A stretch of 64,000 bases of DNA from Thermoanaerobaculia bacterium. GTDB taxonomy: Bacteria; Acidobacteriota; Thermoanaerobaculia; Multivoradales; JAGPDF01. The stretch spans positions 1 to 64,000 of the forward strand of contig CAWDWZ010000007.1 of assembly GCA_963806165.1 (NCBI GenBank), in the 5' to 3' direction. Position 1 is the stretch's first letter; each line of letters opens with the position of its first letter. The position numbers were made by a program, and so were the translations under genes. Under the pieces are notes generated by a model. The model saw nothing but the letters and a program-made list of their open reading frames with translations, was not told the DNA's origin and ran no database searches. This document shows positions 424 to 33,190 of this stretch, piece after piece.

Positions 424-4368
<3,945 letters not shown>

Positions 4369-4419
4369 GGAGTCGCCTGCAGATGTGGTCGGTATGCAAC
4401 AGCGCGAGGGGAGATAAAG

Positions 4420-5787: not shown

Positions 5788-6191
5788 CACGATATCGAGC
5801 GATGCGAGAAGTGGCGTTCGCAGCGAAGGGTTACCCGGAGCGTGCATACGCCAAGTGGGTTGTCCTGAACTTCATTTGGTCCAAGCTTCAGCCACTGCTG
5901 AAGAGCAAAGTGAGCGCAAAGACATTCCTCCGCGTCTGCGAAAGGAATGAAGTTCCGCTGGGGCCATTGAATAGGGCCTGCAATCAGGCATTCCGTGCGG
6001 CGCTTGCGTTCTACCGAAAGGGCCGCGGAAAGGGCGAGCGGGCACAGGACGTCTCCCTCTTCTTCAAGCGAAGGAATCTGCACAAGGAGTTCTTTCGCTA
6101 TTGGAGGTCGACTGCAAACCCAGCTCGTGGAGCGTTCGGAAAGTCCTGGTCGAAGTTTGAGCGCGAGTTTAAGGATTCTGTCGCGAACTGA
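5784..6191 (+). CDS. ORF overlapping the AIPR stop by 4 nt; possibly the frameshifted C-terminus of the AIPR protein (455+135 aa = typical AIPR length)
   Basis: Shares the same lower GC as the AIPR gene. 4-nt overlap. Confidence 0.3.
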   Translation: MTRYRAMREVAFAAKGYPERAYAKWVVLNFIWSKLQPLLKSKVSAKTFLRVCERNEVPLGPLNRACNQAFRAALAFYRKGRGKGERAQDVSLFFKRRNLHKEFFRYWRSTANPARGAFGKSWSKFEREFKDSVAN

Positions 6192-6358
6192 GCCGGTTGG
6201 TCGCGTTAAGAAGGGCGGCGTTGCCAGTTGGATTGCTGTAGCGCGATGACCACGTCTGCGGGTCACGAGCCTCTGCCAGAGGAGGAACTGGCGACTTCGA
6301 TGGCGCGGACGAGAAAAGGTCGGGCCAAGGTAGGCTTCCTCGAGCTTCGTCCCCAACC

Positions 6359-7348
6359 ATGCGCTACTGGTGGGTCAACCAAAACCAGACCTTCCGCCAC
6401 GAATTCGCCGGCGGCTATCTCTGGTCGCCCAAGCGCAACACCGGCGGGCGGCGGAACCCGTTCTACGACTCGATGCGCGAGGTCTCGCCGGGAGATCTCG
6501 TCTTCGGCTTCGCCGACACCCGCATCCGCACCTTCGGGATCGCGACCTCCTACGCCTACGAGAATCCCAAGCCCGGGGAGTTCGGAAACGTCGGCCGCAA
6601 CTGGGAGCAGGTCGGTTGGCGGGTCGATGTCGATTGGCAGCAGGTGCCGACCGTCGTCCGGCCGGTCGAGTGGATGGAGCTGCTGCGCCCGCTCCTGCCC
6701 GCCAAGTACTCGCCGCTCCAACCTGACGGGCGCGGACTCCAGGGCGTCTACCTCACCGAGCTCCCCGAGCCGTTCGCGCTCGAGCTCGCGCATCTCGTCG
6801 GGAGCGTCGTCGAAGCGATCGCTCGGGCCGAGACCGTGGCCTACGTTCCAGCCTCCAACGCCGAGTCGATTCATCCGGAGCTCGCGCTCTGGGAGGAGCA
6901 CCTGCGGAAGACGATCGAGGACGACCCCAACTTACCGGCGACGGACCGCGAGGCGATCGTTCTGGCGCGGCGGGGGCAGGGGCTCTTTCGCCAGCGCGTT
7001 CAGGTGCTCGAGCACCGCTGCAGGGTCACCGGTGTCGACCGGCCGGAGCACCTCAGAGCCAGCCACTGCAAGCCGTGGCGTGACAGCGACAACGCCGAGC
7101 GGCTCGACGGGGAGAATGGGCTGCTGCTCACGCCGTCGATCGACCATCTGTTCGACCGCGGGTTCATCTCGTTTCGCGGCGATGGGCGGCTGCTCGTTTC
7201 GCCGGTGGCGCATCTGCCGTCGTTGGCGAAGATGGGGGTGCCGGTCGATCGCGCGGTCGAGGTGGGTGGGTTCAGCGAGGGGCAGGCGAGGTACCTCGAG
7301 TTTCATCGCGATCAGGTTTGGTTGGCGTCGCGGGTGGCGACTGGCTGA
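6359..7348 (+). CDS. EVE/PUA-like domain fused to an HNH endonuclease (predicted modification-dependent restriction nuclease)
   Basis: N-terminus MRYWWVNQNQT...GGYLWSPK...GDLVFGF resembles an EVE/PUA fold. C-terminal HNH_2-like core: RASHCKPWRDSDNAERLDGENGLLLTPSIDHLFDRGFISF. Confidence 0.7.
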   Translation: MRYWWVNQNQTFRHEFAGGYLWSPKRNTGGRRNPFYDSMREVSPGDLVFGFADTRIRTFGIATSYAYENPKPGEFGNVGRNWEQVGWRVDVDWQQVPTVVRPVEWMELLRPLLPAKYSPLQPDGRGLQGVYLTELPEPFALELAHLVGSVVEAIARAETVAYVPASNAESIHPELALWEEHLRKTIEDDPNLPATDREAIVLARRGQGLFRQRVQVLEHRCRVTGVDRPEHLRASHCKPWRDSDNAERLDGENGLLLTPSIDHLFDRGFISFRGDGRLLVSPVAHLPSLAKMGVPVDRAVEVGGFSEGQARYLEFHRDQVWLASRVATG

Positions 7349-7360
7349 TCGGGGTGAGCG

Positions 7361-7445
7361 CGGGAGGGGACACATAGCGGGGTCCGGAAGGTGCGCGGGA
7401 GTCGGGCAGTCTCGCCCCCGCAATGTGTCCCCAACGGGTGGCGAT
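7361..7445. repeat. Family-A palindromic repeat (GGGGACACAwAGCGGG-N~44-CCCGCAATGTGTCCCC)
   Basis: 16-bp arms form a long imperfect hairpin. Between the HNH gene and the RhuM gene. Confidence 0.7.
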
Positions 7446-7494
7446 GAGTCCCCGAGTTGCCAGATCATGAGAGGGGAATCCGTCCTTCCTGGAT

Positions 7495-8580
7495 ATGAAG
7501 AGCCCAGGAAGGGGAAGGCAGAAGTCCGATGCCGGGAAGGCGTCAGGAGCTCGAGGGAAGGCAAAGCGGACTGAGTCAGCTGTCGAGATCGCGAGCCGCG
7601 GCGAGGTACTGCTCTACGGGGAGCCCGACGGCGCCGTGCGGCTGGATGTTCGGCTCGAGAAGGAGACCGTCTGGCTCGACCTCAACCAGATCGCTGCGCT
7701 CTTCGAGCGCGACAAGTCGGTCATTTCAAGGCACTTGCGAGGCATCTTCGATTCGGGCGAACTGGATCGGGGGGCAACTGTTGCAAGAAATGCAACAGTT
7801 CAACGCGAGGGAGATCGAGAGGTCGTCCGCGACATCGAGTTCTTCAACCTCGATGCCATTCTCTCGGTCGGGTACCGGGTCAACTCCCGGCGCGGCACCC
7901 AGTTCCGGATCTGGGCGACACAGGTTCTTCGCGACCATCTGCTGCGGGGCTACACGGTCAACCAGCTGCGGCTGGACCAGCTCAACCAGGCCGTCCGCCT
8001 GATCGCCAGTACGGCGGATCGGCAGGATCTATCGGGGGACGAGGCCCGGGCGCTCCTGCGCGTGGTGGGCGAGTACAGCTTTGCGCTCGACCTGCTCGAC
8101 GACTATGACCACCAGCGGGTGGGCGTGGCGCCGCTGGGCGGGCGGCTGGTTCATCGGCTCGGGACGGAGGAGGCGCTGCGGATCGTCGAGCGCCTCCGGG
8201 AGCGGTTCGGCGCGGGGAGTCTGGTGGGGCGCCTGCGGGGCGACGGCCTGGACAGTGCCCTCGGTGCGGTCATGCAGTCGTTCGACGGCCAGGACCTCTA
8301 CCCGAGTCTCGAGGAGAAAGCCGCACACCTGCTGTACTTTCTGGTGAAAGACCACCCGTTCGTCGACGGCAACAAACGCATCGGCGCGGCGCTCTTTCTC
8401 TGGTTCCTGGAGAAGAACGGCGCGCTCGCGGGCCGCGGTGACGAGCGTCGCCTCTCGGATGCCGCTCTGGTCGCCCTGACCTTGCTGATCGCGGAGAGCA
8501 AGCCGGCCGAGAGGGATGTCGTTGTTCGAATCGTCACGCATCTTCTGATGGATCGGGCGGAAGCGGCGCGATCCTCTTGA
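7495..8580 (+). CDS. RhuM-family protein fused to a Fic/Doc (death-on-curing) domain
   Basis: RhuM motifs: ERDKSVISRHLRGIF, VGYRVNSRRGTQFRIWATQVLRDHL. C-terminal Fic/Doc motif HPFVDGNKRIGAALFLWFL. The real start may be a little downstream of 7495. Confidence 0.75.
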   Translation: MKSPGRGRQKSDAGKASGARGKAKRTESAVEIASRGEVLLYGEPDGAVRLDVRLEKETVWLDLNQIAALFERDKSVISRHLRGIFDSGELDRGATVARNATVQREGDREVVRDIEFFNLDAILSVGYRVNSRRGTQFRIWATQVLRDHLLRGYTVNQLRLDQLNQAVRLIASTADRQDLSGDEARALLRVVGEYSFALDLLDDYDHQRVGVAPLGGRLVHRLGTEEALRIVERLRERFGAGSLVGRLRGDGLDSALGAVMQSFDGQDLYPSLEEKAAHLLYFLVKDHPFVDGNKRIGAALFLWFLEKNGALAGRGDERRLSDAALVALTLLIAESKPAERDVVVRIVTHLLMDRAEAARSS

Positions 8581-8973: not shown

Positions 8974-9046
8974 AGATGGCTAGCTCAGTGGGTAGAGCAC
9001 CGAATGGAGAGTTCGGCTGTCGCGGGTTCGACTCCCGCGCCATCAC
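8974..9046 (+). tRNA. tRNA-like element with anomalies (pseudo-tRNA or indel-damaged tRNA); anticodon loop tGGAGAg
   Basis: Canonical D-arm gctcagtgggtagagc, T-arm gcgggttcgactcccgc, 6/7-bp acceptor stem (A:A at position 1-72). Anticodon stem ccgaa/ttcgg has G at position 33 and a GAG anticodon with a short variable arm. No CCA encoded. Confidence 0.35.
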
Positions 9047-10587: not shown

Positions 10588-10672
10588 GGATTCGGCCTCC
10601 TCGGGTTCTCTCGAGGGGGCTTTTTTCTTGCGCTGGGTGTACCCTGTCCCGGTAGAGATCCCGGGAGGGGCC

Positions 10673-11320
10673 ATGCCGAAATCGCCCCGCTTCGCATCGA
10701 AGATTTTCGCGCTGCTGGCTCTCCTAGCAACTCCGGCCTTGGCGTCGGACGAAAAGACCGCGTCGCCTGAGCAGGTGACCATGGATCGCCTCCGCGTGCT
10801 CGCCGCCGCACTCCAGGCCTTTGTGAACGACGCGACATCCGGCGAGAATCGGCTGGAACGGGCACCGAGCGCCTGGGTACTCGCGAGCCAGCCTTCTGAG
10901 CTCGTCCGCATTCCACCGGGGAGCGAACTGCTGAGCTATCGCGAGCTCTTCGAGCTCTTAAATCCGCTCGAGGACGCCAGTTACCTGCGCGACATTCCCG
11001 AATACGACGGTTGGGGAAGGCGCATCGAGGTCTACTACTCGGAAGAAAAACTTCTCGCAGCGCGCGTCTTCAGCGTTCGCAGCCCGGGGGCGAACGGACG
11101 TTTCGACACCGATGTCTACGAGATCGGCGGGTTCCTTCCGGGGTCGGAAACGGACGATATCGTCATCGCAGACAAGCGCTTCGTTCGCTGGCCCTTGGGA
11201 ACGCCCGAGGCCGACCTCGCAGTGAAGCCCAGCGTTGGACCGGACTGGAATCGAATCAACAAAGTCGAGCCGGGCACAGGCGACCTGGGCGGCTGCTACA
11301 TCCCCCCAGCTCATCCCTGA
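10673..11320 (+). CDS. Secreted protein with a T2SS pseudopilin (GspG)-like globular domain but a Sec signal peptide
   Basis: Signal peptide MPKSPRFASKIFALLALLATPALA. GspG-like blocks: EQVTMDRLRVLAAALQAF..., DGWGRRIEVYY, SVRSPGANGRFDTDVYEIGGFLPG..DDIVIAD. No prepilin G/FTLIE leader. Confidence 0.5.
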   Translation: MPKSPRFASKIFALLALLATPALASDEKTASPEQVTMDRLRVLAAALQAFVNDATSGENRLERAPSAWVLASQPSELVRIPPGSELLSYRELFELLNPLEDASYLRDIPEYDGWGRRIEVYYSEEKLLAARVFSVRSPGANGRFDTDVYEIGGFLPGSETDDIVIADKRFVRWPLGTPEADLAVKPSVGPDWNRINKVEPGTGDLGGCYIPPAHP

Positions 11321-11559
11321 CGAGCGGGCCCCTACCGTCGGCGGCCACAAGGCGACCCGCCCGGATCCGGTGCGGTCTCTTTCAAAGAGGACGACTCGAT
11401 GCAGACCCAACGGCTCTTCCAGCGAATCCAGCAGGGGAAGCCTCACGCCGGTGTCGAGACGAGCCCGGCCGGCGCGGCGGTTAACGGCAAGTTTGTTTTC
11501 GATCCCTCGCAGGGTCTAACTCGGGTGTAACCTGTCTCTGCAGAGTTCCAGGATAAGTC

Positions 11560-12198
11560 ATGCCGATATCGCACCGCGTCGCATCGAAGGTCATCGCGTC
11601 GCTGGCGCTCTTCGCAACGCCGTCGTTGGCGGCGGACGGAAAGACCGCGTCACTGGAACAGGTGACGATGGATCGCCTCCGTGCTCTCGCCGGCGCTCTG
11701 CTGTCCCGTTATCAGGACGAAGTCTCGGGCGAGAACCGGATGGGCGCGCCGGCGAACGACTGGGTCTTCGCCAGTCAATCGTCGGATCTCATCCGAGTGC
11801 CCGACGTGAGGGCGTTGCGCTCCCGCAAGGGGGTCCTAGGGCTCCTGCGTCCCAGTGAGGACTTCATCTACCTTTGCGACGTGCCGGATCGCGATGCCTG
11901 GGGAGAGCGCATCGAGGTCTACTACGAGCAGGACAAGATCCTCTCCGCGCGTTTCCTCACCGTCCGCAGCGCCGGCGCGAATCGCCACTTCGACGCCGAT
12001 CGCTACGAGGTCGGCGGATTTCTTCCCGGAGCGGCAATCGACGACATCGTGATCGCCGACCAGCGGTTCGTGCGCTGGCCGCTGGGAGTCGCGGAGACGG
12101 AGCTTGAGGTGGAGCCGAAGATCGGAAGGTGCCCGGGCTTTGAGGACGGCTCGGGCGCGCACGCGGACGACGGCGGGGGAGCGGCGCCTGCGCAGTAG
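11560..12198 (+). CDS. Paralog of the 10673-11320 GspG-like secreted protein
   Basis: Signal peptide ...SLALFATPSLA. Same blocks: EQVTMDRLRALAGAL, WGERIEVYY, VRSAGANRHFDADRYEVGGFLPGAAIDDIVIADQRFVRWPLG. Confidence 0.5.
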   Translation: MPISHRVASKVIASLALFATPSLAADGKTASLEQVTMDRLRALAGALLSRYQDEVSGENRMGAPANDWVFASQSSDLIRVPDVRALRSRKGVLGLLRPSEDFIYLCDVPDRDAWGERIEVYYEQDKILSARFLTVRSAGANRHFDADRYEVGGFLPGAAIDDIVIADQRFVRWPLGVAETELEVEPKIGRCPGFEDGSGAHADDGGGAAPAQ

Positions 12199-12226
12199 GT
12201 AGGGGCGGGTCTCACTCCTCCCGGCG

Positions 12227-12321
12227 CGGGAGGGGACACCTGGCGGGTGGGGCAGGGACGCGCAGGCTCGGCGCTCGACTGCCCGCAAGGTGTCCCCAAC
12301 GGCCGGCAAGGTGTCCCCGAG
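12227..12321. repeat. Family-A palindromic repeat, right arm duplicated
   Basis: ggggacacctggcggg...cccgcaaggtgtcccc...caaggtgtcccc. Confidence 0.65.
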
Positions 12322-12435
12322 TGCAAGCGCCAGATGGAGGCCCCGGATTCCGTCTTTACGGAGCATGAAGAGTCCAAGTGCTGAGCGGCGGCGGGCTGCG
12401 GAGTATCCTTCTGCACGCAAGTTGCGTATAATGAA

Positions 12436-12780
12436 ATGAAGGCGGTCTTCGTTGAACTGCCCGCTTTCGCGCGGTATCGAGAGGAGTATCTCGGCGAGAA
12501 GGAGTTTCGCCGGCTGCAAGAGGCGTTGTTGACCAACCCTGCCGCTGGGGACCTGATCGCGGGGACAGGTGGGCTCCGGAAGTTGCGCTTCGGGGACGTG
12601 CGGCGGGGGAAGGGCAAGCGTGGGGGGCTGAGAGTTGTCTACTACTGGTGGGTAGCCGGGTCCCAGTTCTGGCTCTTCACCCTCTTCGACAAGGACGAGG
12701 CAATCGACTTGAGCCCTGAGCAGCGCACGTATCTGCGGGCGAGGATCAAGGCGGAGCTCGAGGCCAGGAGGAGCTCATGA
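12436..12780 (+). CDS. higB: HigB-2-like RelE/ParE-superfamily toxin
   Basis: Characteristic ...GTGGLRKLRFGDVRRGKGKRGGLRVVYYWW..QFWLFTLFDKDE. Overlaps the antitoxin start by 4 nt. Confidence 0.7.
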   Translation: MKAVFVELPAFARYREEYLGEKEFRRLQEALLTNPAAGDLIAGTGGLRKLRFGDVRRGKGKRGGLRVVYYWWVAGSQFWLFTLFDKDEAIDLSPEQRTYLRARIKAELEARRSS

Positions 12781-13121
12781 ACGAGGCAAAGACCGCAGTG
12801 CGGCGAGGCAAGAAACGCAAGCTCTTCGACGAGCTCGACGAAGGGCTCAAGGCGCTCGCCGAAAAGCGCCAGGGCAAGCGGACCCTCCGCAGCCACGAGG
12901 TCGAGATGAAACCGGCGCCGGAGGTCACTCCCCGCCAGCTCCTCGAGCTGCGCGAAGCGCTCAACCTCTCGCGCGCCCTGTTCGCCGTCTACTTGCGGAC
13001 CAACGTCCGCACCCTCGAGAACTGGGAACAGGGGCGCGCCAAGCCCAATGCGCAGGCGGCGCTCCTCATCCGACTCGTGCAGTGCTATCCCGACACCATG
13101 CAACGTCTCGCCGCTGTCTGA
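12777..13121 (+). CDS. higA: HigA-2-like XRE-family HTH antitoxin
   Basis: HTH block LLELREALNLSRALFAVYLRTNVRTLENWEQGRAKPNAQAALLIRLV. Translationally coupled to the toxin. Confidence 0.7.
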   Translation: MNEAKTAVRRGKKRKLFDELDEGLKALAEKRQGKRTLRSHEVEMKPAPEVTPRQLLELREALNLSRALFAVYLRTNVRTLENWEQGRAKPNAQAALLIRLVQCYPDTMQRLAAV

Positions 13122-13136
13122 CTGGGCCCCCAGCGC

Positions 13137-13210
13137 GGTAGGGGACACAAAGCGGGGCCGACCCGGCGGCGTGTTGTCTCATTTGCCGTGCCCCCGCATT
13201 GTGTCCCCGA
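13137..13210. repeat. Family-A palindromic repeat
   Basis: ggggacacaaagcgggg-N33-cccccgcattgtgtcccc, directly 3' of higA2. Confidence 0.7.
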
Positions 13211-13305
13211 ATGTGCCCGAGAACGGCCTGCTCCTCACGCTGATTTCGGCTGGGTTGGAGGCGGCGCTACAATCTCAAGTCGAAGCTCCTCGAGGAGGCT
13301 AGAGC

Positions 13306-13503
13306 GTGAGCCAACCAGCGACGACCGACAAGCAGCGGATGATTCGACTTCTCGAAGAGCAGCCGGACGACAGCACCTTCGAGGAGCTGCTCAAGGAGCT
13401 CGCATTCGATCGCATGGTCGAACGCGGCGTCGCTGACGCCGAGGCCGGACGAACCATCAGTCACAAGGAGATGGGCCGGAGAATCGCCTCTTGGGAGAAG
13501 TAA
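13306..13503 (+). CDS. Small addiction-module antitoxin component (ParD/TIGR02574-like)
   Basis: 65 aa, acidic, LLEEQPDDSTFEELLKELAFDRMVERGVADAEAGRTIS pattern typical of small antitoxins paired with ParE/RelE toxins. Confidence 0.45.
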   Translation: MSQPATTDKQRMIRLLEEQPDDSTFEELLKELAFDRMVERGVADAEAGRTISHKEMGRRIASWEK

Positions 13504-13601
13504 GGTGGACCGAGGAGGCCGCTGACCGGCTCCGCGAGATCCGCGACTACATCGCCAAACGCAACGCCCTCGACACCGAGCAGAGGCTCGCGGCGGTCTG
13601 A
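13491..13601 (+). pseudogene. Truncated ParE/RelE-family toxin remnant (N-terminal ~35 codons only)
   Basis: Frame encodes ...WTEEAADRLREIRDYIAKRNALDTEQRLAAV* which matches ParE N-termini, but stops after ~35 residues. Followed directly by a family-B palindrome. Confidence 0.4.
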
Positions 13602-13612
13602 GGGGTTGCGGA

Positions 13613-13645
13613 GGAAGAAGTCGGGGAGAGTCCCCATTTCCTCCC
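13613..13645. repeat. Family-B short palindrome (consensus GAAAAATGGGGAC-N1-3-GTCCCCATTTTC), degenerate copy
   Basis: gaagaagtcggggagagtccccatttcctccc. Confidence 0.5.
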
Positions 13646-13810
13646 TAAGCTCGTCTTGGCGCGCCAGAAGGCGCCTGCGAATTCCGTCTTTACCTTGGTA
13701 TGGATGTCTTAGCGGAAAAGTGGGCCCGTTGCGGAGTCGTTCCCGCGCTCGAGTCCGCCGTTGTTCGGATGACAAGTATTCCCAAATTGGGTACAATCGT
13801 TCCCATAATG

Positions 13811-14422
13811 GGAAAGTTACGAGAGAAGGCTCTGGGGAGTGGGTTGGCGGGGGCGCTATTCACGCCGGTGCAGCAGCGCGTGCTCGGGCTGCTCTTCGGG
13901 CAGCCGGAGCGGCGCTTTCGCAGCGGGGAGATCATCCGCTTGGCGGCGAGCGGGACGGGGGCGGTGCACCGCCAGTTGCAGCGGTTGGCGGCGGTGGATC
14001 TGGTCGAGGTGACCCGGGAGGGAAACCAGAAACACTATCGGGCGCGGCGCGAGTCGCCGATTTTCGCCGAGCTCCATGGGCTGATCGCGAAGACCGTCGG
14101 CATTGTCGATCCGCTGCGGCTGGCGCTCGCCCCGCTGGCCGGGAAGATCGAATTGGCGTTCGTCTTCGGCTCGATCGCCAAGGGAAGCGACACCGCGGCG
14201 AGCGATCTCGATCTTCTGGTGGTGAGCGAAGAGCTCGAATATGCCGAGGTCTATCAGGCGGTGGAGAAAGCTGAGCGCTTCCTGGCGCGGCCGGTGAATC
14301 CGACCGTCATGCGACCCGCGGAGTGGCGAGCGGCGCGGACGAGGCAGGACTCCTTCGCGTCGCGCATCGCCGAGCAGCCCAGGATCTTCGTCATCGGGAG
14401 CGAGGGAGCCGCGGGTGCCTAG
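13811..14422 (+). CDS. wHTH + minimal nucleotidyltransferase (MNT) antitoxin
   Basis: ELAFVFGSIAKGSDTAASDLDLLVV (GS..D.D nucleotidyltransferase motif) after a winged-helix N-terminus. The in-frame ORF starts at 13700; MGKLREK chosen as the likely start. Confidence 0.65.
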   Translation, partial: GKLREKALGSGLAGALFTPVQQRVLGLLFGQPERRFRSGEIIRLAASGTGAVHRQLQRLAAVDLVEVTREGNQKHYRARRESPIFAELHGLIAKTVGIVDPLRLALAPLAGKIELAFVFGSIAKGSDTAASDLDLLVVSEELEYAEVYQAVEKAERFLARPVNPTVMRPAEWRAARTRQDSFASRIAEQPRIFVIGSEGAAGA

Positions 14423-14849
14423 CCTTGAGCTCGATCGGCTGGTCGCCACTCGCGACCTACAGCGCGAGTCTGCGTCGAGGTCGGAGTTCGAGGGGCTTCT
14501 GCGCTCGGCGGAGGCGCGGCTCCAGGATGCGGAGAACGACCGGAACTCGATCGACAGCCGTTTCGACCTGGCCTACAACGCCGCACACGCACTGGCGCTC
14601 GCGGCGCTGCGTTGGCACGGCTACCGCCCGGTCAAACGCTACATCGTCTTTCCGGCGCTGGCGCACACGGTCGATCTCCCGCGCGAGAGCTGGCGCCTGC
14701 TTGCGAAGTGCCACGACCAGCGCAATCGCACCGAGTACGAGGGGCTGGCACCGATCGAGTCGGCACTCCTCGCGGGCCTCCTCGAGGTGACCCGGGAGTT
14801 GCTGGTGCGGGTGCGGGCACTGGCACCGCTGAGCATCCCGGACTCGTAG
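14415..14849 (+). CDS. HEPN-domain toxin partner of the MNT
   Basis: Overlaps the MNT stop. HEPN-like region ...KCHDQRNRTEYEG... . Confidence 0.55.
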   Translation: MPSLELDRLVATRDLQRESASRSEFEGLLRSAEARLQDAENDRNSIDSRFDLAYNAAHALALAALRWHGYRPVKRYIVFPALAHTVDLPRESWRLLAKCHDQRNRTEYEGLAPIESALLAGLLEVTRELLVRVRALAPLSIPDS

Positions 14850-14899
14850 GTACCGGGAAGACTCCTCTGGAGTCGAAGTGAGCCAGCCGCGAGCTCGCG

Positions 14900-14932
14900 A
14901 AGAAATCGGAAACAGTCCGCATTTCCTCCCGC
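14900..14932. repeat. Family-B palindrome, degenerate copy
   Basis: gaagaaatcggaaacagtccgcatttcctccc. Confidence 0.45.
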
Positions 14933-15042
14933 ACTGCCAGATTCGACCGACAGATCGCGTCTTACCTCTTTCGAGGGCAACGACCCGATGCGGATCGTGG
15001 AGGAAGACCAGCTTCCCCCAGCTTCCCGTGAAGGAGTGACCG

Positions 15043-15264
15043 ATGAAGGACTATCCCATCAACATCTTCTGGAGCGAGCCCGATGCGAGCTATGTCGCCG
15101 ACATTCCCGACCTCTTCCCCTGCACGGGTTTCGGCGCCACGCCGGAGCGGGCGCTCGCCGAGGTGATGCTCGCGCGGGAGGCGTGGCTCGAGACAGCGAA
15201 GGAGAACGGCTTGGCGTTTCCGGTAGCGATGTCGCGGTTGGATGCGGAGACGGGTGGGGGGTGA
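15043..15264 (+). CDS. HicB-like antitoxin-family small protein (no HicA seen)
   Basis: MKDYPINIFWSEPDASYVADIPDLFPCTGFGATPERALAEVMLAREAWLETAKENG resembles the HicB N-terminal domain. Confidence 0.5.
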   Translation: MKDYPINIFWSEPDASYVADIPDLFPCTGFGATPERALAEVMLAREAWLETAKENGLAFPVAMSRLDAETGGG

Positions 15265-15357
15265 GCGGCGCGCGGAGCGGTGCCCGGAATTGCTTGACAT
15301 CCAGAACGGATGCATAATGGAAACCGGACGGATCCATCAGATTCGGAAGGGGTTACC

Positions 15358-15603
15358 ATGGCGACGTTGACGCTGAAGAATGTGCCGGAAGCGCTGGTCG
15401 AGCGGCTGAAACGGGAGGCGAAGCAGAGCCGCCGAAGTCTGAATCAGGAGACGCTTGCGCGGCTCGAGGCGAGCCTGGCGACGCGCCGGCAGACCAGCGA
15501 GGAGAAGATCGCCATCATGCGGGAAGCCCACGCGCGTCTTGCGCACCTGCCGCCGATGACCGACGAGTTCCTCGACTTCGCCAAGCGCGACGGACGGCTT
15601 TGA
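15358..15603 (+). CDS. vapB: RHH (Arc/MetJ-type) VapB/FitA-like antitoxin
   Basis: MATLTLKNVPEALVERLKREAKQSRRSLNQETLARLEA. Stop overlaps the downstream TTG start (TTGA coupling). Confidence 0.65.
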   Translation: MATLTLKNVPEALVERLKREAKQSRRSLNQETLARLEASLATRRQTSEEKIAIMREAHARLAHLPPMTDEFLDFAKRDGRL

Positions 15604-16004
15604 TCGTCGTCGACACCAACCTGCTCGTCTACTCGGTCATTCCAGGCGAGAGCACGGCGCTGGCGCTTCGCGTCGCCGCAAGCGACGCCGACTGGATTGC
15701 CCCGTCTCTCTGGCGCCACGAGCTCGCCAACGCTCTGGCGACCGAGATGCGGGTGCGAGGGATGACGATGCGCGATGCCGTCATCGCTTTCTCCGCAGCC
15801 GAGCGTCTCGTGGTCGACGCGGAGCTCGCCCCCGGCCTCGAAACGAAGCTCGAGCTCGCCGCGCGCGGCAAGGTCTCGGCCTACGACGCCGAATTCGTCG
15901 CCCTGGCGCAGGAGCTCGACCTGCCGCTCGTCACCGCCGACCGGCGGCTGGCGCTGGCGTTTCCGGAAAGAGCGCGAGGGCTCGCCGAGTTCCTCGGCGA
16001 GTAG
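15600..16004 (+). CDS. vapC: PIN-domain VapC/FitB-like toxin
   Basis: IVVDTNLLVY..., acidic residues spaced as in PIN domains, C-terminal ...LVTADRRLA. Confidence 0.7.
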   Translation: MIVVDTNLLVYSVIPGESTALALRVAASDADWIAPSLWRHELANALATEMRVRGMTMRDAVIAFSAAERLVVDAELAPGLETKLELAARGKVSAYDAEFVALAQELDLPLVTADRRLALAFPERARGLAEFLGE

Positions 16005-16005
16005 G

Positions 16006-16094
16006 GGGAAATCGGGGACAGCCCCCATTCCTCGGGGACGGCTGGGAGAGGCGGGACGAACTCTCGAGAAATGGGAATAGTCCCCATTTCTTCC
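16006..16094. repeat. Two family-B palindromes ~35 bp apart
   Basis: gggaaatcggggacagcccccattcc ... gagaaatgggaatagtccccatttcttcc. Confidence 0.6.
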
Positions 16095-16144
16095 CCGGCT
16101 CACAAGGCCCTGTGGGTCTAGAATGTCGCCAAGGGAGGCGGACG

Positions 16145-16462
16145 ATGGGCCAGGGAGAGGCGCAGGTGCGCGCGCGAATGCCGGAGCTCACGGCGCTCTG
16201 TCGGCGTTTCGGCGTGCGTCGGCTCGAGCTCTTCGGGTCCGCTCTCCGCGCGGACTTCGACCCGGCGACGAGCGACCTCGATTTCCTCTTAGAGATCGAG
16301 CCGCCAACAGGCCTGGGCTACGCCGATGCCTACTTCGGCCTGCACGAGGGCCTCGAGCAGCTGTTCGGGAGAGCTGTCGATCTCGTCTCGATCGGAGCGG
16401 TCAAGAACCCCCACCTGCTGCAGGCCATCGAGCGTTCGAGGCGATCGCTCTATGCGGCTTGA
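16145..16462 (+). CDS. mntA: MNT antitoxin of a HepT/MNT pair (start ambiguous; 16178 also possible)
   Basis: RLELFGSALRADFDPATSDLDFLLE nucleotidyltransferase motif. Confidence 0.65.
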   Translation: MGQGEAQVRARMPELTALCRRFGVRRLELFGSALRADFDPATSDLDFLLEIEPPTGLGYADAYFGLHEGLEQLFGRAVDLVSIGAVKNPHLLQAIERSRRSLYAA

Positions 16463-16792
16463 GGCGCGGAAGCTGATCTGGGATGCGCGCGAGGCCGTTG
16501 CCAGGATCCAGGAGTTCACCACAGGAAGTCGCTGGAGGACTACGACGCTGACGCCCTGCTGAGCTCGGCGGTCGAGCGTCAGCTCGAGATCGTCGGCGAG
16601 GCGCTGCACCGTCTGTCCAGGCTCGATCCCGAGACGGCGGCGGGCATCGAAGGGATCTCCCGCATCGTCGGGATGAGAAATGTTCTCGCGCATGGCTACG
16701 CGACCATCGACAACCGGCTGGTATGGGATGTCGTTACGAGCAAGCTCCAGGGGCTCGCGGCGCAACTCGAAAGTCTGGCGCGCGAGGTCTGA
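16459..16792 (+). pseudogene. hepT: HepT (DUF86/HEPN) toxin interrupted by a 1-nt frameshift near 16525
   Basis: Frame 1: MRLEARKLIWDAREAVARIQEFTTG then stop. Frame 2 continues ...LEDYDADALLSSAVERQLEIVGEALHRLSRLDPETAAGIEGISRIVGMRNVLAHGYATIDNRLVWDVV... (Rx4HxY HEPN motif). Confidence 0.6.
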
Positions 16793-16806
16793 CTGGGCTT
16801 CAGTTC

Positions 16807-17112
16807 TCAGCGCTTTCGCGCGCCGCCATAGCGGGCGATCTCGGTGATCTCCTCATCCGTGACGAGGTCGATCAGGTAGAGGACGCCGCGGGCGATCCGA
16901 AAGATCAGTCGGTCCCCGGACGAGATGCGCGCTTCGCTGTAGAACTTGCCAGGAAGTATCGGTTTGATCCGCATTCCAGGCGTCGGCTGGTGCCGGGCCA
17001 GAGCTTCGATCACCCGCAGGGAGGAGAGGCGGCGAGCTACCGGCAGGCCGCGGAGGCGCTGCTCGAAGCGGCTGCCGTAAGAGACCTGCAGCTCGGCCCT
17101 GCTGGAAGTCAT
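16807..17112 (-). CDS. RelE/ParE-family toxin
   Basis: ...YSEARISSGDRLIFRIARGVLYLIDLVTDEEITEIARYG pattern. 4-nt overlap with the upstream antitoxin. Confidence 0.6.
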   Translation of the reverse strand: MTSSRAELQVSYGSRFEQRLRGLPVARRLSSLRVIEALARHQPTPGMRIKPILPGKFYSEARISSGDRLIFRIARGVLYLIDLVTDEEITEIARYGGARKR

Positions 17113-17507
17113 CGCGACTTCGAGCGCGGCTTCGAGCGCTTCGTCGGATGTGCCTGGGGGCGTGCCTGGGGGCGTGCTTGGGGGCGTCGGGTCCCGGGAG
17201 CGGAGGCCTTGGGAGATTCCGGGCCCGGCTCGTTCAGCCGGCGAGCCAGGTCGGCGACGCTCTCCCGGCGCACAGCCCCGGAGCGGATCTCCTGTTCAGC
17301 GGCACGCAGGCGCTCCTGCATTTCGGGATGGTAGAACCACCTCTGATCGCGCGGCAGCAGTTCCGCCGCCACCAGCTCGTAGCCGCCCGCCGCGGTCCGT
17401 TCCAGCAAGACGAAGTCGCCCGGCCCCACGCCCAGCGCTTCGCGCACCTCTTCGGGCAATGTGGCTCGGCCCTTCTTGTCCAGCGTCAGGTAGGTCGCAC
17501 TCGCCAT
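17109..17507 (-). CDS. AbrB/MazE/SpoVT-family antitoxin with a low-complexity RPQA-repeat C-terminal tail
   Basis: N-terminus ATYLTLDKKGRATLPEEVREALGVGPGDFVLLE is a swapped-hairpin AbrB fold. The tail is encoded by tandem 12-mers (tgcctgggggcg)x3-4 at ~17150-17200. Confidence 0.6.
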   Translation of the reverse strand: MASATYLTLDKKGRATLPEEVREALGVGPGDFVLLERTAAGGYELVAAELLPRDQRWFYHPEMQERLRAAEQEIRSGAVRRESVADLARRLNEPGPESPKASAPGTRRPQARPQARPQAHPTKRSKPRSKSR

Positions 17508-17522
17508 AGTGCGCGGAGCAAT

Positions 17523-17572
17523 AGCATCCCTTTGTGGGCTTATCCCACTGTGGGCTTATCCCACTGTGGGCT
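17523..17572. promoter_or_regulatory. Direct 16-bp repeats (tgtgggcttatcccac x2.5) upstream of the AbrB-type antitoxin; candidate operator
   Basis: ctttgtgggcttatcccactgtgggcttatcccactgtgggctga sits immediately 5' of the 17507 start on the minus strand. Confidence 0.4.
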
Positions 17573-17584
17573 GAACAGAGAGTG

Positions 17585-17612
17585 AAACTGGGGACAGTCC
17601 CCATTTCTTTTC
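17585..17612. repeat. Family-B palindrome, adjacent to a family-A copy
   Basis: gaaactggggacagtccccatttctttt. Confidence 0.6.
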
Positions 17613-17633
17613 TGCCATCTGGAGAATGGTGGC

Positions 17634-17732
17634 GAGGGGACACATAGCGGGTTCTGGCGGGGTCGCGAAGTCGGCACATCGATTCGCCCGCAATGTGTCC
17701 CCAGCTGGCAGCATTGCCCGCAATGTGTCCTC
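17634..17732. repeat. Family-A palindromic repeat, right arm duplicated
   Basis: ggggacacatagcggg...cccgcaatgtgtcccc...cccgcaatgtgtcctc. Confidence 0.7.
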
Positions 17733-17858
17733 AAAGTCCACCACTTGCAGAGTCCAGCGAAAGGGTGGACCCATGGCGAGCCGGGCCGGCTGAAACCGCA
17801 AAGCATCCAAGAAGACGTAAGGCCGATCGCACATCGCCGATCGACCCGGGGAGGTCCC

Positions 17859-18578
17859 ATGCATCTGGCGGAGATCTGGCGGTATCCGGTGAAGTCGATG
17901 GCGGGGGAGTCGCTCGAGGAGGCGGAGCTGACACCGTCGGGCGTCGAAGGCGACCGGCTGGTCCAGGTCCGCCTCGGCGATCGCCCCGACGATCGAGTGA
18001 TCACCTCGCGCAGCCGGCCGCGGCTCCTCGGGCACCGTGCGCGACTCGGCGCCGGCGGCGAGATCCTGGTCGACGGGCGACCATGGGGCGATCCGTCGGT
18101 GAAGGAGGACGTCGAGCGTGCCGCCGGAGCTGGGGCGCGGCTGGTGCGCACGGAGCTCGCCCACGAGAGATTCGACATCCTGCCGCTCCTCGTCATGACC
18201 GACGGGGCTATCGCGGTGATCTCGAACGCTTCGCTCGCCGCCGGCTCGACCGAGACCGACCGTCGCCGATTCCGGCCGAACCTGCTCATCGCCGGTGTGC
18301 CCGGTCTCGCCGAGCGCGGCTGGGAGGGGCGGCGCCTTCGGATCGGAAACCCGGGCAAGGCGGGCCAGACGGGTAGCGCCGGCGGGGTCGTGGTGGCGCT
18401 GGCCGACCTCCGCGGGCGCTGCGTCATGACGACGTTCGATCCCGACACCCTCGAGCAGGAGCCGCGCGTGCTGCGTACCATCGTCGAACGGACCGGCGGT
18501 GTCCTCGGACTGAACGCCGAAGTTGTGCGGGGCGGCCGAGTCCGCGTCGGCGATCCGGTCGAGTTGCTGGATGGGTGA
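17859..18578 (+). CDS. MOSC domain-containing protein
   Basis: MHLAEIWRYPVKSMAGESLEEAEL...GVEGDR opening is typical of the MOSC beta-barrel N-terminus; followed by the MOSC core. Confidence 0.6.
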   Translation: MHLAEIWRYPVKSMAGESLEEAELTPSGVEGDRLVQVRLGDRPDDRVITSRSRPRLLGHRARLGAGGEILVDGRPWGDPSVKEDVERAAGAGARLVRTELAHERFDILPLLVMTDGAIAVISNASLAAGSTETDRRRFRPNLLIAGVPGLAERGWEGRRLRIGNPGKAGQTGSAGGVVVALADLRGRCVMTTFDPDTLEQEPRVLRTIVERTGGVLGLNAEVVRGGRVRVGDPVELLDG

Positions 18579-18613
18579 GAATCCGGTCGGCCTTCGTGAC
18601 GCCGAGCCGGCGC

Positions 18614-18686
18614 GGTAGGGGACACAAAGCGGGGGCAACCCGCCGGCGTGTTAGCGCACCGGCCGTGCCCCCGCATTGTGTCCCCG
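18614..18686. repeat. Family-A palindromic repeat (near-identical to the 13137 copy)
   Basis: gcgcggtaggggacacaaagcggggg-N31-cccccgcattgtgtcccc. Confidence 0.7.
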
Positions 18687-18738
18687 ACGAACGCGACAGA
18701 GTTGGGTCCTGGGAGCGGATTGCGGCAAGATCGGCGGG

Positions 18739-19230
18739 ATGAGGACGGTTCGCGGACCGCGCCCGAGCGACGGCATGCCGATCGAGGAGGCGCCGGTCTG
18801 GGCGCTGGCGATCCTCGTCGCCCTCTTCGCGCTGATCTTCTTCCCGGCGCTCGTCGGCCTGGCCGAATCGTTCGGTGCCGACACGCGCGGGCACCGTCTC
18901 GAGCTCGCCGCGGGCGCCGCGGCGCTCGCTCTCTTCCTGGTCGTCGGGCTCGCGCGGCAGCGGCGCTGGCGGCGGGCGCGGTCACCGCTCGACGCGCTCG
19001 ATCCGCTCGCTCCGCTCGCTGCAGACGACCGGCCGATCTTCGCCCGCTTTTCGACCTGGCTCTGGACGACGCTCCTCTTCCCGAATGTCCTCTACGGCCT
19101 GCTCGTGCTGACGCACTCTTCGGAAGGCGCGCGCGTCGATCCGCGGGCGGCGTGGATCGTCGGCCTCGGGGTCTCGGCCCTGCAGGGCCTCTGGGCCCTC
19201 GCGGAGCGCCGGCGCGGGCGCGCCGGCTGA
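18739..19230 (+). CDS. Hypothetical membrane protein
   Basis: Several hydrophobic helices (WALAILVALFALIFFPALVGL, ALALFLVVGL, WLWTTLLFPNVLYGLLVL). No recognisable domain. Confidence 0.35.
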   Translation: MRTVRGPRPSDGMPIEEAPVWALAILVALFALIFFPALVGLAESFGADTRGHRLELAAGAAALALFLVVGLARQRRWRRARSPLDALDPLAPLAADDRPIFARFSTWLWTTLLFPNVLYGLLVLTHSSEGARVDPRAAWIVGLGVSALQGLWALAERRRGRAG

Positions 19231-19236
19231 GGGCCG

Positions 19237-19322
19237 CGGTTGTGCAGGCGGCGCTCCTCATCCGGCTCGTGCAGCGCTATCCCGACACCTTGCAACGCCT
19301 CGCCGCTACGGTTCGACGCAGA
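19237..19322 (+). pseudogene. 3' fragment of a higA2-like antitoxin gene (DNA homologous to 13050-13125)
   Basis: Encodes ...QAALLIRLVQRYPDTLQRLAATV, near-identical to the C-terminus of the 12777-13121 product (NAQAALLIRLVQCYPDTMQRLAAV). Other frames also match. No 5' part. Confidence 0.5.
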
Positions 19323-21072
19323 TGAGGAAGTGCGAGCTCAGATTGCAGGGTTGGGAGTTGAAGTTCCACCAGCGGGCATCGGCCAGGGCCGTGTACGCGG
19401 CGCCGCCCGCGGCGCCGGCGGGATTCGTCCAATCGGTGCAGGTTCCCGCCGTGGTGCCGAGGGCGGTCAAGTCGCCGTTGTGGCCGGTCCAGGTGAGCTC
19501 GGCCGCGGCGAGATAGTTGCCGTTGTGGTGCTGCCAGATCCCGGTGGGAAGCCCGGTCGCGGGGATGAGCTCGGCGCCGGTGCCGACCGCCTGGCCGTCG
19601 ATGCGGACGTAGGTCGCGCCGGCGGTCAAGGCGTTCGACGCCGGGGCGGTCGTGCGCGCGACGAGCGCGAGCGCCCCGGCCTGGTCGGCGGCACAGGTCT
19701 GGTCCGGCGTCGTCGTGCCGTTGGGCACGAAGGCGCCGTTCGAGATCCAGATCTTCTTCCCCGGCACGACGGGCGGCGTCAGGGTGGCGACCTGGGTCTT
19801 CATCAGGCAGTAGATCCGGTGCGGCGCGGCGCAGGCCTGGGTCGAGTAGCGGGTCCACGCCACCGGCCCGCCGGCGGTATCGCCGTAGGCGACGAAGCTC
19901 GACCCCCCGGTCCAGTCGCTGCAGCTCTCCGCCGTCGTGCCGTCGCTCGCGGTGCCGGTCATGACGATCTCGCTCGCCCGCCGGGTTCCGGTCTCGTCGA
20001 GATCGAGCGCCTGGAAGATCTGACGGTTGGTGAGCAGCTGGGTCTTGCTGTCGGCGAAGGGGGCGCCGTCCATCCGCACCCAGCCGCGCGGATTGCCCAG
20101 CCGCACGGTCGCGCTCGAGACGGTCGACGAGATCCAGGCCATGAAGGCGGTCCCGGCGACGTTGTTGATCCCGGCGGCGGTCGCGAGCGCGTTGCATTGG
20201 GTGTCGTAGGCGCCCACCGAGCCGAGGTTGACCGCGAAGGTCGTCGAGGAGACGAAGGCGAGATTCCAGGTCTGGGCCGAGAAGTTGGCGGTGACATTCT
20301 GCGCCGCGGTGACGCTCAGCGTGCAGTCGTGAAACGCGCCGGCGCCCGCGCAATCGTCCGCCCAGCCCGAGAAGTAGGAGCTTGCGCCGTTGCTGGTGCG
20401 CGCCGCGAGGGTGACCGCCGTGCCGTGCTCGAAGATTCCCGTGCAGGTGGCGCCGCAGGCGATGCCGGCCGGCGTGGAGGTGACCGTTCCCGTGCCGTTG
20501 CGGGTGACCGTCAAGGAGTGGCCGAAGTGCGCCGAGACGCTGGTCGTCTGGTCGACGATCACGATGCAGGCCCCGGTGCCCGAGCAGGCGCCGCTCCAGC
20601 CGAGAAAGAGGGCGTCCGCATCGGGGGTCGCGGTGAGGGTGACCTCCGTGCCGGCGTCGAAGAACGCCGAGCAGGTGGCGCCGCAGTCGATGCCGGCGGG
20701 GCTCGAGCTGACGGTGCCGCCGCCGGCGTTCGTCACCGTGAGCTGGTAGGGCGTGTCGCAGAGTCCGAGGTAGCAGATGCCCGAGAGGCAGTCGGAGCCC
20801 TGCAGGCAGTTGAGGCCGAAGGTGCAGCCCGGGCAGGAGCGGCCGCCGCAGTCGATGTCGGTCTCGCAGCCGTTCTGGATCAGGTCGGTGCAGTTGTCGA
20901 CCTCGGGCGGCACGACGTTCGACCAGAGGCAGCTGTTGCCGCTCTCGAGGCCGTCGAGGAAGAGCAGCAGGTCGGGCGTGGCCGGGCCTGACCGCACCGC
21001 ATCGGCTGCGAGCGCGGTGGGCAAGAGCGCGAGCAGCCACCCGGCGATCGCAGCCGCGGACCTTTCGGCCAT
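19306..21072 (-). CDS. Secreted protein with InlB B-repeat (Listeria-Bacteroides repeat)-like domains and two DUF1554-like domains
   Basis: Signal peptide MAERSAAAIAGWLLALLPTALA. Repeats GGGTVSSSPAGIDCGATC..., GTGTVTSTPAGIACGATC.... C-terminal halves resemble DUF1554 (Y.AWiSs...W.R.DG..., W.....C..HFLiC). Confidence 0.6.
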   Translation of the reverse strand: MAERSAAAIAGWLLALLPTALAADAVRSGPATPDLLLFLDGLESGNSCLWSNVVPPEVDNCTDLIQNGCETDIDCGGRSCPGCTFGLNCLQGSDCLSGICYLGLCDTPYQLTVTNAGGGTVSSSPAGIDCGATCSAFFDAGTEVTLTATPDADALFLGWSGACSGTGACIVIVDQTTSVSAHFGHSLTVTRNGTGTVTSTPAGIACGATCTGIFEHGTAVTLAARTSNGASSYFSGWADDCAGAGAFHDCTLSVTAAQNVTANFSAQTWNLAFVSSTTFAVNLGSVGAYDTQCNALATAAGINNVAGTAFMAWISSTVSSATVRLGNPRGWVRMDGAPFADSKTQLLTNRQIFQALDLDETGTRRASEIVMTGTASDGTTAESCSDWTGGSSFVAYGDTAGGPVAWTRYSTQACAAPHRIYCLMKTQVATLTPPVVPGKKIWISNGAFVPNGTTTPDQTCAADQAGALALVARTTAPASNALTAGATYVRIDGQAVGTGAELIPATGLPTGIWQHHNGNYLAAAELTWTGHNGDLTALGTTAGTCTDWTNPAGAAGGAAYTALADARWWNFNSQPCNLSSHFLICVEP

Positions 21073-23563: not shown

Positions 23564-23630
23564 AGGGGACACAAAGCGGGGCGACCGGCGTCGTGCTGGT
23601 CGCGACTCTCTGCCCCCGCATTGTGTCCCC
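23564..23630. repeat. Family-A palindromic repeat
   Basis: ggggacacaaagcgggg-N30-cccccgcattgtgtcccc, between convergent/divergent genes. Confidence 0.7.
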
Positions 23631-33054: not shown

Positions 33055-33178
33055 GCGGGAGGGGACACATCGCGCGGGGCCTCGCCGTCAAGGTGTCCCT
33101 CCAAGGTGTCCCTCCAAGGTGTCCCTCCAACGTGTCCCTCCAAGGTGTCCCTCCAACGTGTCCCTCCAACGTGTCCCC
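33055..33178. repeat. Family-A repeat whose right arm is tandemly amplified (13-mer aaggtgtccctcc x ~7, 33089-33178)
   Basis: Left arm ggggacacatcgcgcgggg, then aaggtgtccctcc / aacgtgtccctcc units ending ...gtgtcccc. Confidence 0.7.
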
Positions 33179-33190
33179 GGTGCTGGCGGC

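Follow-up and report, generated by a model that had tools for sequence, protein, structure and literature searches.

HigBA2, ParDE and similar toxin–antitoxin (TA) modules are classic cargo of chromosomal integrons, and a cluster of attC sites lacking an integrase is termed a CALIN. In the pdif modules of Acinetobacter plasmids and in the neisserial intergenic mosaics (dRS3/RS), small modules, often TA modules, or mosaics lie between short repeats and are reshuffled among replicons or strains; the pdif (XerC/D) sites are 28 bp long with an 11-6-11 layout, alternate in orientation and depend on Xer. In Photorhabdus, TA operons are reported to cluster in small spots of high turnover in which toxin pseudogenization is frequent (PMC13617665). 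Here an array of TA modules punctuated by two families of palindromic repeats, A and B, is described from contig CAWDWZ010000007.1 of a soil bacterium of the Thermoanaerobaculia (phylum Acidobacteriota), the whole stretch of 64 kb that was analyzed being referred to as the window. The original prediction, made from the letters of the window, had seen at 12200-19330 a cassette array with integron-like dynamics or with dynamics mediated by miniature inverted-repeat transposable elements (MITEs).

On balance, and with modest confidence, the locus is read here as a chromosomal TA/defence hotspot equipped with strand-polar hairpins that resemble repetitive extragenic palindromic (REP) sequences, turning over by rearrangement near these repeats and by erosion of its toxin genes. 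The same operons recur in differing orders among relatives, which argues for a fast-changing accessory island and not for an integron; the array is integron-like by analogy only. For the comparison, 44 related loci (numbered L001 and so on) were fetched, and the homology searches and the collection of repeat doublets covered the window and 41 loci.

The Toxin–Antitoxin Modules

Seven TA modules lie between 12.4 and 17.5 kb, each backed by family, PDB or fold evidence, and are co-oriented on the plus strand except for a RelE/AbrB pair, which is inverted. Both the co-oriented set and the inverted pair had been named in the original prediction and are borne out by this evidence. The genes are the following (helix-turn-helix, HTH; nucleotidyltransferase, MNT; AlphaFold2, AF2).

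12436-12780, plus strand: HigB2 toxin, intact; matches HigB-2 of Vibrio cholerae in the PDB (5ja8/5ja9, E 1.8e-27), with a weak PF06296 match
12777-13121, plus strand: HigA2-type HTH antitoxin, intact; HTH_3, MqsA and NadS matches
13306-13503, plus strand: ParD-like antitoxin of 65 aa, now an orphan; weak NCBIfam RelB/ParD match (E 0.03)
13491-13601, plus strand: chimeric parE::higA stub; matches PF05016 profile positions 1-26
13700-14422, plus strand: MntA-like antitoxin, HTH plus MNT; family matches
14415-14849, plus strand: predicted HEPN-fold toxin of 144 aa, apparently intact; AF2 model with pLDDT 90
14988-15042, plus strand: hicA stub, by comparison with the intact HicA of L035
15043-15264, plus strand: HicB-like antitoxin; weak Pfam match
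15358-15603, plus strand: VapB antitoxin, FitA-like ribbon-helix-helix; family match
15600-16004, plus strand: VapC PIN toxin, intact; family match
16112-16462, plus strand: MNT (MntA-like) antitoxin; family match
16452-16792, plus strand: hepT, frameshifted by a 1-nt deletion near 16522; HepT domain match
16807-17112, minus strand: predicted RelE/YafQ-fold toxin of 101 aa; AF2 model with pLDDT 84, matching YafQ/RelE
17109-17507, minus strand: AbrB/MazE-type antitoxin; Pfam/NCBIfam match

The higB2 stop codon overlaps the higA2 start codon at 12777-12780 and the toxin comes first, as in type II modules of the HigB2/HigA2 kind. The two MNT antitoxins, each with a HepT (DUF86) or HEPN toxin behind it, show the arrangement of type VII HepT/MntA modules. 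Family searches gave no sequence-family match for the 144-aa protein; its model, built from an alignment of homologues, has its best match in the HEPN protein 2hsb and weaker ones in MntA-HepT and HEPN/MNT complexes, which points to a HEPN fold. In the same way, the 101-aa protein on the minus strand is without a sequence-family match, and its assignment to the RelE/YafQ fold is that of a model from homologues. Close homologues of the ParD-like protein precede a full-length ParE (PF05016, E 1e-14) in L009, L025 and L039.

Promoter-like -10 hexamers, read by eye, stand upstream of several units. A probable operator 5' of higB2 consists of the palindrome ACGCAAGTTGCGT, overlapping a TATAAT box within 12404-12430, and another 5' of abrB of about 2.5 copies of the direct repeat TGTGGGCTTATCCCAC within 17527-17570. 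A conserved leader, GCCAGAT-N10-GGATTCCGTCTTTACC-N5-ATG, is found directly 5' of unrelated start codons (Fic, MNT, hicA), with copies at 7463-7497, 12334-12366, 13664-13702 and 14938-14990 and in many related loci. It is followed by a hairpin with compensatory stem variation that would be able to mask the ribosome-binding site; the leader is not sigma-70-like and belongs to no known RNA family.

The Two Repeat Families

Family A is a polar inverted doublet in which arms of 16 bp, with a single conserved A·A mismatch, flank a spacer of 35 nt; the result is a 67-nt hairpin with the ends GGGGACAC / GTGTCCCC. The window holds 17 family-A half-sites against 0.18 expected; the eight elements lie at 7.36, 12.23, 13.14, 17.63, 18.61, 23.56, 30.79 and 33.06 kb, none being present beyond 33.2 kb. 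Family B is a palindrome of 12+12 nt (AGAAATGGGGAC-W-GTCCCCATTTCT), frequently paired 59 nt apart, with nine matches in the window against none expected. The prediction that two repeat families follow most of the modules is upheld: both families are far above chance, and copies of A or B occupy most of the junctions of the array.

7366-7432, plus strand: family-A copy upstream of RhuM/Fic, outside the interval of the original prediction
12232-12318, plus strand: family-A doublet (12232-12297) with an extra 3' half-site (12303-12318)
13130-13210, plus strand: family-A copy of subtype A2, 88% identical over 81 nt to 18607-18687
13614-13644: family-B palindrome from the repeat scan
14899-14929: degenerate family-B palindrome from the repeat scan
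16005-16094: B-B doublet, two palindromes 59 nt apart, recurring in L001, L007 and L011
17584-17610: family-B palindrome from the repeat scan
17636-17732, plus strand: family-A doublet (17636-17702) with an extra half-site (17717-17732)
18607-18687, plus strand: family-A copy of subtype A2, partner of 13130-13210
23565-23630, plus strand: family-A copy adjoining a Ser/Thr kinase gene; L008 and L011 have a copy in the same place

Outside the TA block, family A is also present at 7.4, 23.6, 30.8 and 33.1 kb and family B at 21.2-21.4 and 42.8 kb. Half-sites of family A also form tandem arrays, with seven 13-nt units (CAAGGTGTCCCTC) at 33089-33180 and, in L011, six units with a period of 26-47 nt at 2227-2412.

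Among the 74 family-A doublets collected from the window and the 41 loci, the spacer measures 35 nt in 62. In 71 of the 74, position 11 is occupied by a purine in the 5' arm and by T in the reverse complement of the 3' arm, so that an A·A or G·A mismatch results. The 16-bp stem is 97.5% paired, a figure inflated by the choice of copies for their arm similarity; four pairs are changed on both sides, and none of 500 shuffles reaches this level. Over all pairs of copies the arms are 96% identical and the loops 55-60%, and within the window the figures are 96% for arms and 40% for loops. Near-identical arms around divergent loops indicate that the copies in the window are old and that their arms are under constraint. 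On every contig with at least two oriented copies, all copies run in the same direction.

One alternative is a purely regulatory or structural role, in which the repeats would act as terminators or insulators, mRNA-stabilizing elements or operator-like sites, and the island would turn over by illegitimate recombination and horizontal exchange of the ordinary kind, in which the repeats have no part. Family-A copies lie 14-40 nt past the stop codons of plus-strand genes, and the copy at 30.8 kb stands between convergent genes, where no promoter is needed. Family B resembles a short bidirectional terminator, two of its copies scoring as short terminator-like hairpins, and the TA units are without classical long-stem terminators such as follow the SPFH gene and occur near 8.8 kb. 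The strong constraint on the arms and the position of the kinase-adjoining copy, conserved in three genomes, would likewise suit such a role. However, family A has no U-tract, and its plus polarity disregards the direction of the local genes, being kept even at 23.6 kb, where the neighbouring genes lie on the minus strand. A simple terminator would have no need of the conserved A·A mismatch, and the concentration of the repeats in one type of island is left unexplained. Rfam gave no match to either family at gathering or permissive E-values. Membership of a known RNA family was rejected on that negative, and both families appear to be previously undescribed. Taken together, an exclusively regulatory or structural role is considered quite unlikely.

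Distribution and Gene Order in Related Loci

All related sequences recovered by way of the family-A repeat come from metagenome-assembled genomes (MAGs) of Thermoanaerobaculia/Acidobacteriota or from unlabelled JGI metagenome contigs. Among the GTDB representative genomes, the exact A doublet is confined to five Thermoanaerobaculia/Acidobacteriota MAGs, where it is clumped: one MAG has seven exact copies, five of them on a 24-kb contig versus one on a 1.29-Mb contig, and another has ten, nine of which share one 197-kb contig. In these MAGs family A is not spread uniformly, the distribution that would have spoken against the original prediction. Several metagenome contigs stop at an A copy, so that assemblies may under-count the family. 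No A doublet was found in IMG/VR, and an origin from a phage or satellite was rejected on this basis.

The genes near the A copies of the relatives are mostly those for HTH proteins, ResIII/helicase/DUF3427/PLD nucleases, Fic, nucleotidyltransferases and ribbon-helix-helix antitoxins. Lone copies stand beside superoxide dismutase and tRNA genes and near MsrAB and aconitase, and one lies directly 5' of another HigB/HigA pair. The copies beside housekeeping genes imply that family A is not TA-specific, yet it is strongly enriched in the homologous islands.

The units shared across the mapped loci comprise Fic, ParDE, HigBA, MNT/HEPN, MNT/HepT, HicAB, VapBC, RelE/AbrB, MOSC and kinase genes, of which the non-TA kinase, Fic and MOSC genes serve as recurring landmarks. 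Their order varies, and content and order differ at the homologous place in relatives, as in a variable island. Written in the orientation of the window, with repeats in brackets, examples of the orders are as follows.

L039: Fic-[A]-ParDE-HigBA-...-[A]-MNT/HEPN'-MNT/HepT
L036: [A]-MNT/HEPN'-MNT/HepT-[A]-...-tRNA-SPFH
L001+L011: HigA-p230-p212-ParD-[BB][A]-...-MOSC-[A]-[BB]-HicB-[A]-VapBC-...-[A]-kinase
L013: Fic-[A]-MNT/HepT-[A]-[A]-ParDE

In every mapped locus, each homologous gene keeps the orientation relative to the polarity of family A that it has in the window. Permutation without inversion is the outcome that would be expected of recombination between direct repeats or of a directional site-specific system. 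Homology of the parDE unit begins 40-55 nt after the A copy, and in L018 homology begins about 10 nt 5' of a -35 box. The most similar pair of A copies, those at 13130 and 18607, brackets a 5.5-kb block of five TA modules and the MOSC gene, which could be lost or gained in a single exchange.

Similarity between copies extends beyond many of the A elements to a variable degree, reaching the end of a DUF3427-helicase gene (its 3' part) on the left and the Fic leader and first codons on the right. A homology of variable length argues for segmental duplication followed by deletion, not for a transposon with defined ends. A "long" 200-nt element around family A was rejected, as its flanks turned out to belong to these two genes, the left one to the helicase 3' end and the right one to the Fic start with its 5' leader. 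An empty-versus-filled site at the Fic/tRNA junction (window versus L018) was also considered; the left neighbours differ, and no clean insertion is seen.

Toxin Decay and Gene Remnants

Three of the seven toxins (parE, hicA and hepT) are disabled, with intact counterparts in relatives. The ORF (open reading frame) at 13491-13601 had been taken for a truncated ParE. It is indeed a stub, of which the parE part reaches only to codon ~22: homology to parE ends near 13555, and from ~13566 the ORF consists of the last 10-12 codons of a second higA, the segment 13572-13613 being 93% identical to the end of higA and its downstream bases in L007. This higA tail (13566-13601) runs on into a family-B palindrome, like the higA end in L001. 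Since the gene order parD-parE-higB-higA is kept in L009, L025 and L039, the chimera is best explained by a deletion of ~1.1 kb.

The HicB-like antitoxin, predicted as such, is present and is not solitary: at 14988-15042, just upstream, the start region of hicA is joined to its last ~15 codons by an internal deletion of ~190 nt, and L035 has an intact HicA (PF07927, E 1e-11) that overlaps the hicB start. The predicted MNT/HepT module is likewise there, with a toxin gene that is split by one base missing near 16522 relative to L036 and intact homologues; this deletion could be a long-read sequencing error.

Two further remnants are found in the array.

12319-12381, plus strand: Fic-leader stub (GCCAGAT..GGATTCCGTCTTTAC..ATGAAGAG), a copy of the leader before RhuM/Fic
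19241-19307, plus strand: higA2 3'-end stub of 67 nt, 62/67 (93%) identical to 13049-13115

The Fic leader occurs also at 7433-7513, before RhuM/Fic, and in other genomes, and its copy at 12319-12381 precedes the higBA promoter. The higA2 fragment near 19.24 kb, predicted together with an adjoining family-A copy, is confirmed by alignment as a real remnant; the nearest A copy (18618-18685) is ~550 nt away with an ORF in between. The fragment lacks a stop codon and exactly spans the gap between two convergent genes. Its five substitutions and unique flanks speak against an assembly artefact, a judgement made from the assembled sequence. Its source is the higA allele of the window itself, the alleles of L001 and L007 being only 79-82% identical to it, unlike the tail at 13566-13601, which is of an L007-like allele. 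The two alleles among stubs and the intact gene imply that three or more higBA copies, belonging to two lineages, have been present in the array.

Comparable remnants are seen in relatives, where the HEPN gene breaks off at codon ~66 in L020, L027, L036 and L039, L011 keeps the 5' end of hicB and L026 the 3' end of the 212-aa gene described below, and 3' ends of DUF3427-helicase genes precede many family-A copies. An integrative island that targets the 3' end of higA, with 67-nt direct repeats as attL/attR, was set aside because no integrase is found, because the second stub belongs to another higA allele and is explained by deletion, and because the end-points of the stubs differ.

Recombinases and Mobile Elements

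In tblastn searches of the window and the 41 loci, IntI1, XerD, IS200 TnpA and gamma-delta resolvase gave nothing below E 0.1; the query for IS200 is remote, and these searches amount to a screen, not a proof. The same remote query found no Y1/IS200-like transposase in ~255 kb, made up of the 64-kb window and ~190 kb of related loci, and Pfam listed no integrase among 39 ORFs of the window and 86 of the loci, the latter being covered by their 25 commonest families. A heuristic scan for RYYYAAC/GTTRRRY attC-like sites returned 0 candidates, both at 7-25 kb and over the whole window. The absence of an integrase and of attC cores from the window, noted at the outset, is thus repeated by tblastn, Pfam and scan alike. 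The only transposase of the kinds considered belongs to the IS110 family (PF01548/PF02371); with its upstream non-coding end it lies at 3308-4500 of L042, ~100 nt from an A copy, and has no homologue in the window or the other loci. Serine resolvases, IS200/RAYT-like Y1 transposases (RAYT, REP-associated tyrosine transposase) and IS110 were accordingly dismissed as agents, save for that one IS110 element, and an integron was rejected by the IntI1/XerD searches and the scan for attC cores.

These results bear most directly on a site-specific alternative, in which family A, and possibly B, would be an attC-analogue site that folds in single-stranded form and at which a distant recombinase excises and re-inserts units, much like an integron integrase. 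In agreement with it, the hairpins are polar and constant in geometry and in their mismatch while their loops vary, they are strictly co-oriented and placed at cassette junctions, cassettes are permuted with orientation kept, A copies are concentrated in islands and the cargo is typical of chromosomal integrons. Against it stand, besides the lack of recombinase homologues in the DNA searched and of attC cores, junctions that vary in position, units with promoter-like sequences of their own, single A copies at housekeeping genes with no cassette and A-A tandems with nothing in between. Such a mechanism is thought very unlikely. The integron-like label of the original prediction, likewise, does not hold: to the negatives for IntI/XerD-like recombinases in 64 kb plus ~190 kb and for attC-like structures are added the units' own promoter-like hexamers.

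The IS110 family is reported to target REPs, and transposition of IS200/IS605 elements is single-stranded and biased by the direction of replication. A second alternative holds that A and B are non-autonomous elements, of the MITE kind or of the kind of REP doublets known as REPINs, whose transposase, a RAYT or that of an IS, would be encoded at another locus, and that they are tolerated in this island without any part in the rearrangement of its cassettes. The co-orientation of the copies is compatible with replication-biased single-strand transposition, the repeats are extragenic with dispersed single copies at housekeeping loci, and the element of L042 adjoins an A copy. As an inverted doublet of fixed spacing, family A also resembles REPINs as these are described in PMC3116915 and PMC3337134. 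However, the remote IS200 query found no Y1 transposase in the ~255 kb, a MAG has only ~7-10 exact copies, and the half-site tandem arrays look like the product of slippage. Neither family has target-site duplications or sharp ends, the variable homology of the flanks is typical of segmental duplication, and the age and divergence of the copies in the window speak against a recent burst; on these grounds the earlier label of MITE-mediated dynamics is not sustained. Mobility of this kind, as the whole account of the repeats, is regarded as unlikely.

Proposed Mechanism

In the favoured reading, that of a TA/defence hotspot turning over near REP-like hairpins, the building blocks would be short self-contained operons, namely type II and type VII TA pairs and a few other small genes, with the extragenic A and B hairpins separating the blocks. 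The arms of family A would be kept by selection, either through a host factor that recognizes the folded strand or through a function of the hairpins as transcript ends between units. Whole units could be gained, duplicated, moved and lost through recombination in or near the co-oriented repeats, and it is the common orientation of the recombining repeats that would preserve the orientation of the units. Small deletions and frameshifts would then disable toxins and leave stubs behind, as may have happened to parE, hicA and hepT, to the two higA tails and to the Fic leader. A dedicated integrase would not be necessary for any of these changes.

It has to be noted that several points weigh against this reading. 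Breakpoints between genomes lie near the repeats, at no single fixed position, and with a repeat in almost every intergenic gap the finding of breakpoints at repeats is weak evidence. Identity among the A copies of the window is limited to 16-20 bases, a short stretch for exchange by RecA; only the 13130/18607 pair (81 nt, 88%) goes beyond this. Copy numbers come from exact-pattern scans of MAGs, the assemblies of which tend to break at repeats. As regards the broader claim of a cassette array shaped by site-associated recombination, what stands is that units are permuted, that A and B sit at the junctions and that stubs are common; the junctions themselves fall at no fixed nucleotide.

Genomic Setting of the Array

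The window has a GC content of ~68%, and the array lies 3-6 points under its flanks and the DNA to its right. On its 5' side the TA block is preceded by genes for a type I restriction R subunit (HsdR), AIPR, an HNH nuclease and RhuM/Fic (1708-8580). The upstream defence genes and the low GC of the array together suggest that the TA block is nested in a larger chromosomal defence/accessory island. Within the upstream defence-gene region, GC falls to 0.56-0.62 at 4-6 kb.

At the left end of the window, which has 5S and 16S rRNA genes, a partial tRNA (1-70), 5S rRNA (91-207) and a complete 16S rRNA (421-1917) follow one another in that order; the 16S gene is directly followed by a protein-coding gene with no 23S gene after it, an unusual rRNA arrangement. 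A tRNA-Leu(GAG) gene at 8974-9046 sits within the variable island, with its counterpart in L036 at 5723-5795, and the tRNA-SPFH block lies 3' of the MNT cassettes in L036 and L037 versus 5' of the TA block in the window. Two tandem paralogues of 230 and 212 aa (10628-12198; 71-73% nucleotide identity) are without a family assignment and travel as a pair in relatives; the stub in L026 is that of the 212-aa gene. A k-mer survey found crowded internal repeats such as GCGCTGGCCAACCCGGCGCTGCAGGCGGCGCTCGC and GCCAGTCCGGCG at 49200-50200, probably a repeat-rich coding region. Two further genes of the array are not TA genes.

17860-18578, plus strand: MOSC-domain protein, non-TA unit of the array; family match, the ORF being open from 17745
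18741-19230, plus strand: ORF with predicted membrane helices and high third-position GC; zero homologues at E<=1e-3 among 5.8 billion proteins

Comparison with Known Systems

The locus offers a clear example, traced through several genomes of a soil phylum that has been little studied, of the life and death of chromosomal TA modules. Intact, half-dead and almost erased copies of a module can be aligned across relatives, and from these alignments the end-points of the deletions in parE::higA, hicA and HEPN can be read exactly. Family A has arms that hardly vary, a constant mismatch, a constant spacer and a uniform polarity, a combination that is usual for a folded strand recognized by a protein. 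Should there be a partner protein, the island would be an obvious locus in which to seek a recombinase directed by hairpins, or a factor that binds RNA or DNA, of a new kind; otherwise it would serve as an instructive case of REP-like elements with a local, not a genome-wide, distribution. The boldest proposal, a decided long shot, is that cassettes are shuffled at family A by an IntI-independent system not described before, in which a recombinase encoded elsewhere reads the hairpin strand-specifically. If true, this system would move TA/defence operons within and between Thermoanaerobaculia islands and would match attC x attC recombination in function while having arisen independently.

Of the systems introduced above, sedentary chromosomal integrons and CALINs share with this array co-oriented, small, TA-rich cassettes (HigBA2, ParDE, RelE-type), most of them trailed by a folded, imperfect and polar palindrome with a variable loop, in an order that varies. 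The array differs from them in having no intI and no RYYYAAC/GTTRRRY cores, promoter-like sequences of its own, unfixed junctions and single repeats at housekeeping genes. The pdif sites differ from family A, which is a 67-nt hairpin doublet of uniform orientation with no dif-like layout.

With REP sequences and REPINs (PMC3116915, PMC3337134), family A has in common extragenic inverted doublets of units of ~16-20 nt with fixed spacing, conserved arms and a spacer whose sequence can vary freely, the formation of long hairpins, and an occurrence both singly and in clusters. Unlike the REP/REPIN-RAYT systems of Pseudomonas and Enterobacteria, it is very low in copy number in the exact-pattern scans, strongly concentrated in one island and found in half-site tandem arrays, and no RAYT was seen in the DNA examined; the GTAG motif at the 5' end of REPs is only loosely present (GKAG or GCGA).

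The TA spots of Photorhabdus are linked to transposases and integrases (PMC13617665), none of which was seen in this island, and the island carries in addition type I restriction–modification, AIPR, Fic and helicase-nuclease genes and two repeat families. In how modules are lost, the two are alike: by deletion or by pseudogenization of the toxin, with orphan antitoxins left behind (PMC13617665).

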